The notes beneath the pieces are model-generated. The model had not been told where the DNA came from. It saw nothing but the letters and a program-made list of their open reading frames with translations, and ran no database searches. A stretch of 64,000 nucleotides of DNA, taken from the NCBI GenBank assembly GCA_964016885.1, contig OZ024765.1, forward strand, positions 18,724,001-18,788,000. Reading direction: 5' to 3'. The DNA is from Eledone cirrhosa (lineage: Eukaryota). Every line of letters begins with the position of its first letter. Within the stretch, counting starts at the first letter, position 1. Positions 91 through 54,450 of this stretch are shown here, piece by piece. Made by a program: the position numbers and the translations under genes.

Positions 91-291
91 TAGGAACGAG
101 TAGGACCCCGACGGCTGAGCTCAAGCCGTTTCGACTGCTAATTCTGGATTCGAGTCCAGAATTAGCCGTCGTAACGGCTTGAGCTCAGCCGTCGGGGTCC
201 TACTCGTTCCTATTATCCACTCTACTACCCTAAGTATTGAGTACTTTGGTGCGTTATGGTCCACCTGGTTCCTTACCACATTTCCTTCGTT
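91..291 (+). mobile_element. Fold-back mini-element family A (Penelope-like pLTR derivative with 3' half of a hammerhead)
   Basis: ~120-bp palindrome centred near 151 plus an ~80-bp unique tail, flanked by (TA)n. Homologous copies at 13450, 19854, 24409, 29769, 42242 and 54289. Confidence 0.75.
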
Positions 292-414
292 ATATATATA
301 TATATATATATATATATATATATAAATATATATAAAAAGGAACGATCGACTGTCGTCAAATCGGACCGAGGAAACAATGTTTCTGTTGGTCTTTCCAATT
401 GCTAATACTATCTA

Positions 415-530
415 TCGGTCGCAACTCCAGGTAGAAGGAGCAACGTGAAATAAAGTGACGTGCTCAAGGACATAACGCATCGCCTGGTCTAGGAATCGAA
501 CTCACAACCTCACCATTGCAAATCCAATTC
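415..530 (-). mobile_element. tRNA-derived SINE fragment (octopus OR-like head)
   Basis: Minus strand has B-box GAGTTCGATTCC followed by gcgttatgtccttgagc, homologous to 39676-39790 and 53437-53515. Confidence 0.65.
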
Positions 531-2759
531 ATATGTATATATATATAATATATAGCTTTTCGCTAAGGCTTTATTTTCTAACTTTCCTACTTTGTTTTCT
601 ACATTCTCTTGTGTGTTCTACCATTCTTTACCTTTAAAGCTATATATATATATATACATACGAAAGGAGCTGTGTGGTTACTAAAAACAAGGTTTAGATG
701 GTGGTTAGGACGGAACAGGCGAGAGAGGAAGAAAGAAGTTCCCATCGATATATAGTTATTCACATATTATCAACACACATACATGAAAGTATTCACATTC
801 CTAGCATTTACCTACTACTTTACTTTACCAATAATATCCCGTCGTCATTTTAGGAATTTATTAAACAAATTATCGTCTCCATTACGTAAACGACCGAGTG
901 CGGTATTTGTTTAAATTCAAAACGAATTCCAAAAAACAGTGTCTGAAAGACTGATGACAAATAAAATGGATGAGATGTGTTTGACAAATAACTATCAAAA
1001 CTGTGGCAGAGTTTGTCAGATATTTGACGTCTATCAAATTAGATCTTTCGGTATTATAGTTGGTATTTACTCTACTGAAATTCATGTTTGCATGTGTATA
1101 TATACACACATACACACACATACACATATATACAGATGTATAGACATACACACGCACATATGCATATTTATACGTGTTGGTGTGCCGTGGTGGGGTGTCT
1201 GTGTGGATTGATTACAAACAAATTTGTATTAGAATGTTTATCTTGAAACATATTTTTAATCTTCCTTTCGTTAAATTTGGTATCAGCTTGTTTGCGTGTG
1301 TTTATTTTTGTATGAGTGTGGATGTACATATACATGTGTATGTTTAAGTGTGTATACATATATATATATATACGTATATATTTAGAAACATGCACCAAAG
1401 CACGTCGACTAACACGGACACAGAGGCAGACTAACACATCTAAACACACACAAATATATATATATACATGTGTGTATATATATATAGTGTATATACATAT
1501 ATATACGTTCGTGAATAACTATATATTTACGTTCCATGTGTGTGCATATGTATATATATATTTATGTATATAGTATAAAATATATATATATTATATATAT
1601 ATATATATATATGTTTATACATATACATATATATATATATATATATATATATATGTATATATATATATATATATATAAATATATATGTATATATATATAT
1701 ATATATATATATATATATATATATATATATATATATATAGAGAGAGAGAGAGAGAGAGAGAGAGAGAGAGAGAGAGAGAGAGAGAGATGTGGGGAGAAGG
1801 AGAGAGAGAGATAAATGCTCATAAACATGTAAGTTTGGTTTTATGTATGCATATACATATATACATATATATTACTTGCAGAAATACTTTAGAGGAAGTT
1901 GTCTTTACGTATTCGTGTGGTTTTCTTTATTGGTTGTGCTTTGTTCAACAATTTACTGCAGACTGTTTTAGTTTTTCTTTTTATTTCTTCTAACAGCCTC
2001 ACACTACATGTCGTTCACGCTCGTTTCATTTTCTATTGTAATAAATTTTGATGATCTTACTCTACTTCTTCTTGTATTATATATTGGTGCTATTATACAC
2101 AGTTACGTATATATATATATATATATATATATATATATATATATATATATATATATATACACATATATATATATATATGTATACATATATGAATATATAT
2201 ATATATATATATATATATATATATATATATATATGTATACATATATGAATATATATATATATATATATATATATATAAATATATATATAAATATATATAT
2301 ATATATATATATATATATATATATATATATATATATATATATGTGTGTGTCTATATATATATATATACATATATATATATATATATATTTATATATATAT
2401 ATATATATATAGAGAGAGAGAGAGAGAGGGCGAGAGAGAGTGAGAGAGAGGAGAGACACACACACACAGATATACATATACATATATTTATATATATATG
2501 TATTTTCATATATATATATATATATTTACATAAACATACATATATATATATATATATACATACACACACATATATCTGAGTATGTGTATATATATATATA
2601 TCAGTGTATGTGTATATATGTATATGCATATATATATATATATATATATATATATAGGATATATATATACATATGCATATATACACATACACAGATATAT
2701 ATATATATTTATATATATATAGAATGTTATTACAGTTGTTGTGGTTATTATTTTAAACA

Positions 2760-4280
2760 TTTGTCGATGTTGCAGTTCTTGGTGTTGTTGATGTTGTTGT
2801 TGCAGTGGTGATGGTGGTAGGTGGTTTGTATGTGATGGACTTTCTGTCGGGAGGGAAGGTGTTTATTGTCGTTTTTTTTCTGTTCCTAATGTAAGTAGTG
2901 TTGGCTGGCTGTTATTTTTTCTGCGCTTGTTGTTGTTATTGTTGTTGTTATTCCTAATTATAGCTCTGGTAGTTTTTCTCATTGTTATTTTTGCTGTTGC
3001 TAGTGGTGATTGTGGTGTTGTTACTAGTGTTTCTTTTTTTTCTGCTGGTGTTGTTGTGGCTGTTGTAGTTGTTGGTAGTTTTGTTGTTCCTCTTTTTTGC
3101 TGCTGCTGTTGTTGTTGTTGTTGTTGTGCTTGTTGGTATTCTTGTTATGCTGTCTATCTCTTCTGTTATTGCTGCTATTGTTGTTGTTGTTAGCTGTGGT
3201 CCATGTTGTAGTTTCTGGTGCGGATGTTGGTATAGTTGTTAAGGCGTTGCCTCTATTATTGCCGTTGTTGTTGTGGTTGATATTGTTGGTGTTATTGTTG
3301 TAGTTATTTTAGTTGATATCGTGGTTGTTATTCCTATTATTGTTGTAGTTGATATCGTGGTTGTTATTGCTGTTGTTGTTGTGGTTGTTATCGTGGTTGT
3401 TACTGCTATTTTTTGTTGTAGTTGATATCGTGGTTGTTATTGTTGTTGTTGTGGTTGATATCGTGTTTGTTATTGCTGTTGTTATTGTGGTCAGTATTGT
3501 GTCTGTTCATACTGTTGTTATGGTGTTGTTCCTGCTATTGCTGTTGTTGTTGTGGTTGTTATAGCTGTTGTTGTTGTTGTCTTTATTAATAGTGGTGACT
3601 ATAGAGTTGTTTCAATTGTTACTGTAGGTGTTGCTGATCTTGGTGGTGTTGTTACTGATGGTGGTAGTGGTGGTAGTGGCAGAGGTGATGCTGGTGGTGT
3701 TGGCGGCGGTGATAGTGATGATGGTGGCAGAGGTCATGGTGGTGGTGGTTGTGGTGGCAAAGGTGGTGGCAGAGGTGATGTTGGCGGTGGTTTTATTGGT
3801 GCAATTCCTGTTTATTTTTTTGCATTGAATGTTCCGTTGGTGTTTGTGTTGTTTTTATTATTGCTGTTATTGGTGGTGGTGATGATGATGGTTGTGGAGA
3901 TGTTGATCATGATGATAGTTATAATGTCTGGCTTGTTCTTCTGTTACTATTGTTGCTGTTGTTGTTGATGTGGAGGCTATGGAGGTGTCGGTCTTTATGG
4001 CGATGATGCCGTTCGAGTATTTTATTTTTTTCTCTATTACTGCTGTATTTGTTGTGATTATGGGGCGGTAGAGGTAATGCTGGTGGGAGGGAGTGATGAT
4101 GGGGTCTGATTGTGGTGGTGGTAATGAAGGTGGGAGTGATGATGGTGGTAGTGGTTGTGCTGGTGGTAGTGGGGGTAGTGGTGCTGCTGTTGGTGTTGAC
4201 GGTGGTGGTTGCGTCGTTCGAGGTTTATTCCCTATTGTTTTTACTGTTCATGTTGTTTTTGTTGTAGTGGTTGTGTAAAT
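2760..4280. repeat. Degenerate (GTT/GGT/GCT)n low-complexity tract
   Basis: Trinucleotide-rich run giving only poly-L/V/G/C pseudo-ORFs. Confidence 0.85.
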
Positions 4281-52458: not shown

Positions 52459-53436
52459 ATATATATATATATATATATATATATATTTATATATATAATA
52501 TATATATATATATATATTTATATATATATATATATATATATATATATATATATTTATATATATATATATATATATATATATTTATATATATATATATATA
52601 TATTTATATGTATGTTTATATATATATATATGTATATTTATATATATATATATATATATATATATATATATATATATATATTTATATATATATATATATT
52701 TATATATAGATATATAATATATATATATATATATATTTATATATATATATATATATATATATTTATATATATATATATATATATATTTATATATATATAT
52801 ATATATATATATATTTATATATATATATATAAATATTTATATATATATATATATATATATATATATTTATATATATATATATATTTATATATATATATAT
52901 ATTTATATATATATATATATATTTATATATATATATATATATTTATATATATATATATATTTATATATATATATATATATTTATATATATATATATATAT
53001 ATATTTATATTTATATATATATATATATATATATTTATATATATATATATATATTTATATATATATATATATATATTTATATATATATATATATATATTT
53101 ATATATATATATATATATATATTTATATATATATATATATATATTTATATATATATATATATATATATTTATATATATATATATATATATATTTATATAT
53201 ATATATATATATATTTATATATATATATATATATATATTTATATATATATATTTATATTTATATATATATATATATATATATTTATATATATATATTTAT
53301 ATATATATATATATATATTCATATATATATATATATATATATATATATATATTTATATATATATATTTATATATATATATATATATATATATATATATAT
53401 ATATATGTGTGTATATATATATATATGTGTGTGTGT

Positions 53437-53560
53437 GAAGGCGTGTGGCTGACTGTTTAGATTCGCAATCGTAAGGTTGTGAGTTCGATTCCTGGACCAG
53501 GCGATGCGTTATGCCCCAGCATGGCCTCAGCTGGATGGCTGGAACAGTTAAAAGAGTAAT
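53437..53560 (+). mobile_element. Internally deleted tRNA-derived SINE
   Basis: B-box gagttcgattcc and a short tail. Confidence 0.6.
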
Positions 53561-54288
53561 ATATATATATATATATATATATATATTATCGTTTTTTAAT
53601 TTGTTTTGCAAGATTTCTTATTTTAAAACGTTGGTTTTCACTTCAATTTATTATAAGTTTCCGGTTGGTTGGTTGGTTTGATAACCAGAAGGTTGTTTAT
53701 ATATAGTCTAAGCTCTTTCATCTCATATTCTGTGACCTCCTCAGTGAATAGGTTTTAATATTCTGCGCCTCTCCTTTGTTTTTCCCTACACCATGATCCA
53801 GGGATGATAAACTGCTGATGTGTATGTGGTAGTGGTGGTAGTTTTGGTTGTGCTGATGGCTGTGGTAGTATGAGGTTGTTTCGGTTATGGTGATTGCTGT
53901 GGTAGAGGTACTTGATAGAGGTAAAGGTGGTCATCATCGTTGTGGTACCGGTGGGTGAGGTAGTGATGACTGCTGTGGCAGTGGTTGTCGTTATTGAAAT
54001 GGTATTTACTCAATTAGTAGTGGTTGTTAAGGAAATTATTTCTGAGCTAGAAGTGGTTGTTGGGGAGACGGTGACTGTGGTGTTGTTGGTTGGTGTGGTG
54101 GCGGCTTCTTGTCAATGATTAGGCAACCACTATCAAAGACACTCAAGCACCTATAAACACACTATTCTATTACTAATACTACGTCCTACCAATGTATGCC
54201 TTACGCCATACACACACACAAACACACACATATATATATATATATATATATATATATATATATATATATATATATATATATATATATA

Positions 54289-54450
54289 TAGGAAAATGTT
54301 CAAGAGCCCGACGGCAGAGCTCAAGCTGCATCGAAACTGCTTGAGCTCTGCCGTCTGGAACATTCTCCTATAACCCGCTCTACATCCCTAAATATTGAGT
54401 AATCTGGTGCGTTATGGTCCACCTGGTTCCTTACCACACTTCCCTCGTTT
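54289..54450 (+). mobile_element. Fold-back mini-element family A (diverged)
   Basis: Homologous tail, with the fold-back centre immediately 5' of GAAA. Confidence 0.7.

Follow-up and report, generated by a model that had tools for sequence, protein, structure and literature searches.

What connects the points at which short palindromic repeats fold back on themselves with the hairpins of hammerhead ribozymes? The question is raised by a stretch of 64,000 nucleotides from Eledone cirrhosa (C26:18724001-18788000, contig OZ024765.1; hereafter the window) out of a 3.0-Gb, (TA)n-rich genome. After simple-repeat masking the window holds 31 palindrome centres, 23 of them outside an (AGT)n repeat. 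An earlier note on this DNA had mapped fold points onto hammerhead stems and proposed that a stalled cDNA snaps back on such a hairpin, primes its own second strand and rejoins the target through TA microhomology, a self-priming idea that in its general form is already in print (PMC3846280). The feature is real and abundant; the ribozyme-hairpin mechanism, however, fails for the main class. The palindromes, about 200 bases long and present in thousands of copies, are pieces of a Penelope-type retrotransposon, and their fold point likely marks where the element's RNA begins, not a ribozyme hairpin.

Family A combines the opening 138 bases of its parent element (counted from +1, where family A starts) with an inverted copy of the initial 58. 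Each copy has two arms of ~58 nt and an 80-nt tail on one side, and is flanked by (TA)n runs. An exact pattern across the centre finds at least 9,301 copies genome-wide, and the reversed control finds 0. Our sample comprised 40 of 50 listed loci plus 800 kb of unselected sequence (864 kb including the window), and at least five subfamilies are present in it. As the earlier note had recognized, family A keeps the 3' half of a hammerhead: GAAA, the TC site, stem III and stem I's 3' strand are there, the core is not.

The parent was recovered by a search guided by the TATA box, an idea taken from families V and W, which yielded a recurrent sequence upstream of family A. In loci L213 and L254 it belongs to a tandem unit of ~3 kb that runs from a GIY-YIG domain through a long 3' untranslated region and the family A stretch into a reverse transcriptase (RT) frame. 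Such units, with RT plus a GIY-YIG at the C-terminus, lie in tandem and inverted arrays and measure 3.0-3.5 kb (3.06 kb in L254; an array on C1 has a 3,543-nt period). They show (partial-)tandem organization with a pseudo-LTR (long terminal repeat), an inverted truncated copy and a tail. The parent open reading frame contains, by eye, the RT motifs FDIxSYY, MGATDS and YRDD and a YIG motif, and the copies read carry a frameshift near the N-terminus. Neighbours of the protein in the ESM Atlas at 0.96-0.99 include GIY-YIG and RVT_1 clusters, while a Pfam search of it returned 0 families and a PDB sequence search no match. Translations of L245, L254 and L257 display, again by eye, the features of the Hydra clade (DKT, a CxCX5C linker, CxxC and CxH, no CCHH, a (TA)n target), with RWR where that clade has RWK. 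By its motifs, the family A parent is assigned to the Hydra-like, endonuclease-positive (EN+) Penelope-like elements (PLEs) as an autonomous member. The hammerhead thus belongs to a PLE and unfolded parents exist, both as anticipated. A parent bearing ggacccc-CTGANGA, which had also been expected, gave 0 pattern matches. Two other sets of candidates were rejected: the best 30 GIY-YIG loci belong to other PLE families and yielded the W parent only, and nine copies with CTGANGA ahead of the family A start are folded or chimeric copies, dropped because a random junction insert can create such a core when copies number in the thousands. Genome-wide, 10,596 GIY-YIG candidates (150 scored, all above the cut-off) represent several further abundant PLE families.

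The parent carries a predicted complete type I hammerhead. Core boxes and all three helices are present in the predicted fold, with stem I from -48, the core at -43, GAAA at +19, then stem III and the cleavage site after +41, and the fold lies 0.1-3.3 kcal/mol above the minimum free energy in six parent copies. Among 21 distinct parent copies, which vary at N7, the bulge and loop II, the core reads TTGA(G/T)AA in 17 and CTGAGAA in four; the former has a U3-A8 pair, a hammerhead variant known from PLEs (PMC4209133), the latter a C3-A8 mismatch. The Rfam hammerhead models gave no match to the parent at E<=10, and no compensatory stem changes were seen among these 21 close copies. Stem II closes a loop of ~39 nt, and the family A axis lies 11 nt inside the 3' side of this loop. 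The stem II axis that had been noted in five window copies hence holds for loop II of the parent; what looks like stem II in the window itself is a hairpin formed by the palindrome.

The family A tail has 55 hits in the 864 kb, 50 of them alignable. Thirty-five of the 50 arms end between -6 and +13, three extend further and 12 are shorter; family A2 (~83% identical to A) begins at the same position. A TATA-like box starts at -29 in two subfamilies of family A. In family W, 9/15 arms end 28-32 nt past TATAAAA and none at 0-27, and in family V, 22/30 arms end 30-41 nt past TATAAATA, at the edge of stem I. The axis accordingly lies ~30 nt past a TATA-like box in all three families with parents, be it inside the hammerhead, at its edge or 40 nt before it. 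In A, V and W the axis follows the putative promoter whatever the position of the ribozyme; it coincides with the hammerhead only where this promoter is placed within or shortly before that motif. A further sign comes from non-parental bases at -1. Where the match stops at +1 they are G in 14 cases and A in three (P=0.013), and in the 100 rows of the TATA-guided search 22 G stand against 4 A (by eye; 3 G ambiguous). An extra cap-derived G marks full-length capped L1 insertions (PMC4859970, PMC11702581). An enzyme simply adding C would leave the same G, and either source points to run-off at the template end. From the TATA-like box near -30 and the extra G we infer that +1 is a Pol II start.

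Several observations weigh against a transcription start at the axis. In family A the box departs from the canonical form, reading TATTTAAA in 99 of the first 100 rows, and one subfamily has its best TATA at -24, which makes the TATA clue weaker for family A than for W. The sequence TATTTAAA can act as a TATA box. About half of the non-parental G's could be contributed by the opposite arm. Where arms stop at -1 to -4, alternative starts and added A's may equally be the cause, the two being indistinguishable. The 5' ends of families T, O, P and X are broader and more scattered, and for U, Y, Z and S the sample holds no TATA-bearing parent, although the 5' ends of U, Y and Z are fixed. Readings of the boundary as a splice acceptor or a Pol III box were rejected, as no recurrent upstream exon sequence occurs in the junctions; T's before +1, once considered as untemplated additions, are present in the parent. 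Summed depth in two contig runs falls about ninefold across +1; this figure does not measure copy number, and nothing here rests on it.

How the two arms come together can be read from 63 family A junctions (35 pattern-selected and 28 unselected, two of them from the neighbourhood of a copy tailed on both sides). No fewer than 55 of the 63 are distinct, with overlaps of 0-1 nt, templated re-copies and short inserts. Palindromes thus arise afresh on insertion, a point on which the earlier note was right. Pol theta makes templated inserts at junctions. Neither arm is favoured in its reach towards 5': the untailed arm is longer in 22 junctions, the tailed arm in 27, and 14 agree within 1 nt. Long pairs split 3:3 (untailed longer in L248, L250 and L251; tailed longer in L244, L252 and L256), and in L251 the untailed arm runs to -370, the tailed one to -32. 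In the window the untailed arm is the longer at 14396, 18531 and 16812, at the last by 1.4 kb. Copying of one cDNA by itself is disfavoured by this asymmetry, because extra parent sequence would then be possible on the tailed side only. The element at 16812, previously offered as an example of snap-back, argues the other way, its tailed arm being the short one.

The outer ends are fixed. In family A 128 of 141 lie at one of two sites, +58 or +138, with TAT next in the parent sequence in both cases; the TA end is therefore a fixed site like the tail end, which speaks against snap-back on ribozyme stems as the cause. Both outer ends look like priming sites, 80 nt apart on the RNA and each at UAU. 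Read in this way they fit in vitro work (PMC11167929) in which a PLE protein nicked both strands and extended them from two start sites, which delimit the tail. The two arms also share subfamily alleles (outer 17-mers identical in 31/45; two differ at three places), which suggests that one RNA was used twice. In L105, one arm segment bears alleles of another subfamily, by conversion or template switch.

These junction data have their weak sides too. The near-absence of arm pairs from two subfamilies fits twin priming on one RNA and snap-back alike, and asymmetry in both directions could also arise if a hairpin tip were trimmed later. A few arms come out too long by chance in the parser's output, and the pattern-selected (C1) set read by eye gives untailed longer in 9 vs tailed longer in 15.

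Two local copy pairs keep the same rare centre at 3.5-5.5% divergence. One consists of the window copies at 151 and 13510, which are 96.5% identical, have different flanks and are probably not independent events. The other, in the L165 region, has its members 1.7 kb apart, one of them tailed on both sides. Such same-centre neighbours suggest occasional local copying or conversion of a whole palindrome.

The parent, the two fixed outer ends, the sharp +1 boundary, the new junctions and the lack of a favoured longer arm are direct readings of the sequence. The best explanation for them, and in our view a rather probable one, is that twin-primed cDNAs run off the RNA start and are joined head to head. 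Both nicked (TA)n target ends would prime RT at two fixed RNA sites 80 nt apart, the arms being primed separately and probably on one RNA. Both cDNAs would run off the probably capped 5' end of this RNA, and repair by end-joining, probably microhomology-mediated, would fuse them head to head. With a promoter inside loop II, the family A transcript would start with half a ribozyme, and the ribozyme would be whole only in read-through or 3' copies. The more general proposition, that PLEs integrate by obligatory twin priming with one enzyme dimer, both target ends and one capped sense RNA, we hold to be an even call. Each insertion would then be two cDNAs head to head, and priming near the 5' end would mass-produce start-bounded palindromes.

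The main rival invokes later trimming of a hairpin tip. Here a single cDNA, after run-off at the capped 5' end, folds back on its 1-3 terminal bases instead of on a ribozyme stem, and the tip of the resulting hairpin is opened and trimmed afterwards on either side. This accounts for subfamily alleles common to both arms and for the many junctions with 0-1 nt overlap or small self-complementary inserts, and self-priming has been proposed for Penelope palindromes before (PMC3846280). Yet it needs the tailed arm to have been shortened secondarily in 22 of the 49 asymmetric copies, by up to 340 nt (L251) and 1.4 kb (16812), leaves the fixed untailed end unexplained, and sits poorly with the two pairs that retain an identical rare centre at 3.5-5.5% divergence; we consider it unlikely. 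More doubtful still is that the boundary is a pause of RT on a long RNA, for instance at a weak loop II hairpin, instead of a transcription start. One subfamily does have a weak AU-rich hairpin at about -17 to +5, yet the boundary is constant although loop II differs among subfamilies, the boundaries of V and W follow TATA spacing and not structure, and the extra G indicates run-off at a template end.

Very little room is left for a main route by cDNA stalling and snap-back on hammerhead stems II or III, the cause originally proposed. The family A axis does lie inside loop II, as do some ends of families T and O. Snap-back on stem II would place the complete loop in one of the arms, with the self-copy behind it; the genome pattern search found 0 such products, against 3,242 arms that read through loop II into the parent (the first 100 rows all continue as parent). 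Both patterns cover the same two subfamilies; the count of 9,301 comes from another pattern and is not strictly comparable. Stem II snap-back is thereby refuted, and the junction asymmetry (22 vs 27) lacks the direction that snap-back would impose. A class centred on stem III exists, with 668 strand matches, which the proportion among the first 100 rows converts to ~460 loci (~5% of copies); half of it consists of perfect joins through the palindromic loop, which are not snap-back products. Of the native-loop copies, 8/12 have the tail on the predicted snap-back side and 4/12 on the other. The axes of W and Z, moreover, lie far outside the ribozyme. What survives of a DNA-level role for the stems is small: none for stem II, and for stem III a supply of microhomology in ~5% of copies. 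At least as improbable is the route put forward for palindromic junctions in rotifer Penelope elements (PMC3846280), in which an antisense template is used for self-priming. It shares the head-to-head geometry, and the TATTTAAATA box is itself palindromic, whereas the boundary and the extra G follow sense-strand promoter geometry in three families. A plain DNA palindrome copied whole, in the manner of a miniature inverted-repeat transposable element (MITE), is hardly credible. Two local pairs do share a centre; the retroelement parent, which refutes the idea, the one-sided 80-nt tail and 55 distinct junctions out of 63 all contradict it. Membership of the MITE class as such (symmetric terminal inverted repeats, a constant interior, a transposase partner) is rejected on the one-sided tail, the variable centre and the RT parent.

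Among published systems, tailed inverted copies with 5' truncation are on record, as are (TA)n targeting and a pseudo-LTR that holds a start site and a hammerhead (PMC8557442, PMC2377424, PMC4209133). With EN+ PLEs, family A shares the head-to-head inverted copy, the one-sided tail, the pseudo-LTR start with hammerhead and (TA)n (PMC8557442, PMC3846280, PMC2377424). It differs in a tail of 80 nt vs 30-40 published, and in palindromes the size of MITEs, as most copies end at a single inferred start. The promoter here looks TATA-dependent and upstream, while that of D. virilis Penelope is TATA-less and internal. Common to the Hydra clade (PMC8557442) are DKT, CxCX5C, CxxC and CxH in the endonuclease, a C-terminal GIY-YIG and (TA)n; the parent departs from it in RWR instead of RWK, a length of 3.0-3.5 kb vs <3 kb and a non-canonical hammerhead. 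In Anolis Poseidon (PAc; PMC11167929), too, both strands are nicked and then extended, the tail lies between two RT start sites, and ribozyme cleavage is dispensable; its starts lack target homology, where here both sites are UAU, matching (TA)n, and that paper leaves the inverted junction unexplained. Twin priming of L1 (PMC11702581, PMC4859970) offers a second target end that primes internally, an end-joined inversion junction and an extra G. Its inversions involve a 1-10 bp deletion or duplication, whereas the two family A cDNAs both span one and the same stretch as far as the 5' end. The non-LTR retrozymes (bioRxiv 10.64898/2026.07.22.740005) are also short non-coding PLE derivatives with a type I hammerhead. 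They form head-to-tail arrays with whole ribozymes, while family A is head-to-head with half a ribozyme and no core, and that class was rejected on these grounds.

Inverted tailed Penelope copies are thus already known; the start-site axis and the loop II promoter are the new parts as far as our searches go. No published report of start-bounded palindromes, PLE twin priming or a promoter in a hammerhead loop was found, older Penelope reviews and supplements lying beyond the search. How PLEs form inverted one-tailed insertions is stated as open in PMC8557442 and PMC3846280. Thousands of short young copies now supply statistics on their junctions, which speak for two primed cDNAs on a capped sense RNA and against self-priming, and family A offers a 140-nt template for a direct test of the mechanism. 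The palindromes would mark the transcription starts of many families without RNA data. A promoter inside the ribozyme loop, if true, would keep the self-cleaving RNA incomplete at its 5' end. Such palindromes could readily be mislabelled as MITEs or microRNA hairpins: an Rfam scan of the window gave sub-threshold matches only, among 150 of the 376 listed, and those on palindromes include microRNA models.

All ten centres named in the earlier note are present (151.5, 13510.5, 19993, 24546, 29909.5, 42350, 54332.5, 51435, 52222 and 28811.5). Missing from that selection are 7518, 31473 and 57006, at a distance of 40-63 nt upstream from a hammerhead core, as well as 24096, downstream of one. The family A copy at 93..290 (+), in (TA)n, has an untailed inverted arm (93-148), a junction (149-152, with a G at 152 absent from the parent) and a tailed arm (153-290) equal to parent +1 to +138; its same-centre partner is 13452..13649 (+). 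On the minus strand, 19855..20051 has the tail on the left and its axis at 19993, parent +1; in 24410..24604 (axis 24546) the arms stop at +2 and +4, and in 29770..29970 (axis 29909.5) both end at +2. The minor class is represented by 42243..42380 (-), joined via a self-complementary GAGCTC in loop III, and a diverged copy at 54290..54449 (+) by a join at a TCGA word adjoining GAAA, both placed correctly before.

Among the other families, V at 18416..18585 (unstranded) has its tailed arm on the left and a whole hammerhead (18524-18575) on the untailed arm, which begins 32 nt past the TATA box of the parent. Family W at 31323..31688 (+) has its axis at 31473, 28-31 nt past the parent TATA box and 40 nt upstream of intact U3-A8 hammerheads; its parents in L057, L061 and L064 lie downstream of a GIY-YIG domain. 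The 16812 element (15315..16982, -) combines a long untailed arm, with a hammerhead at ~15367-15428, and a short tailed inverted arm from 16811, whose start in loop II was rightly described (16811-16895 is the inverted match to 15315-15399). Family U at 14262..14466 (unstranded) keeps a whole core on the untailed arm, the tailed arm stopping within the core, and at 28785..28955 (+) has its axis at 28811.5, ~9 nt 5' of the core, the 5' end common to the family. In family Y (52156..52400, +) the axis at 52222 is the 5' edge of stem I, where five unfolded copies start too. These two folds just 5' of the core had been located correctly. No longer parent of U or Y was recovered in the sample. For family S (51386..51484, unstranded) the fold reported at 51370-51498 is confirmed as a palindrome centred on 51435 with arms stopping in or beside stem-loop II; its parent core was not recovered. 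Both arms of family Z (7356..7681, unstranded) carry intact hammerheads, with the axis ~63 nt upstream and the same 5' end again at 57006. Family T (31740..31856, -) has its axis at 31833, in a family with scattered 5' ends, some in loop II.

Loop II of family Y exceeds 100 nt in some copies and is short in another (52223-52380; 42516-42560). At L034:1490-1560, the 5' half of a family X hammerhead is fused to the 3' half of family A at a common CAGAAT in loop II. The joined C26 sample contains at 256995-273600 (window 57006, L134) a recent local duplication of ~16.5 kb with 99% identity and unchanged palindrome centres. A large palindrome at window 5062-5641, with arms of at least 290 nt and its centre in a (TA)n run, is probably a different type of event. 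Two frames that lie side by side at 20968-22023 resemble the zinc-finger and endonuclease end of a non-LTR retrotransposon. Finally, cluster 1 of the C26 stretches (23 copies) is a tandem array with a period of ~4.6 kb, each unit containing an inverted repeat around a 49-nt spacer.

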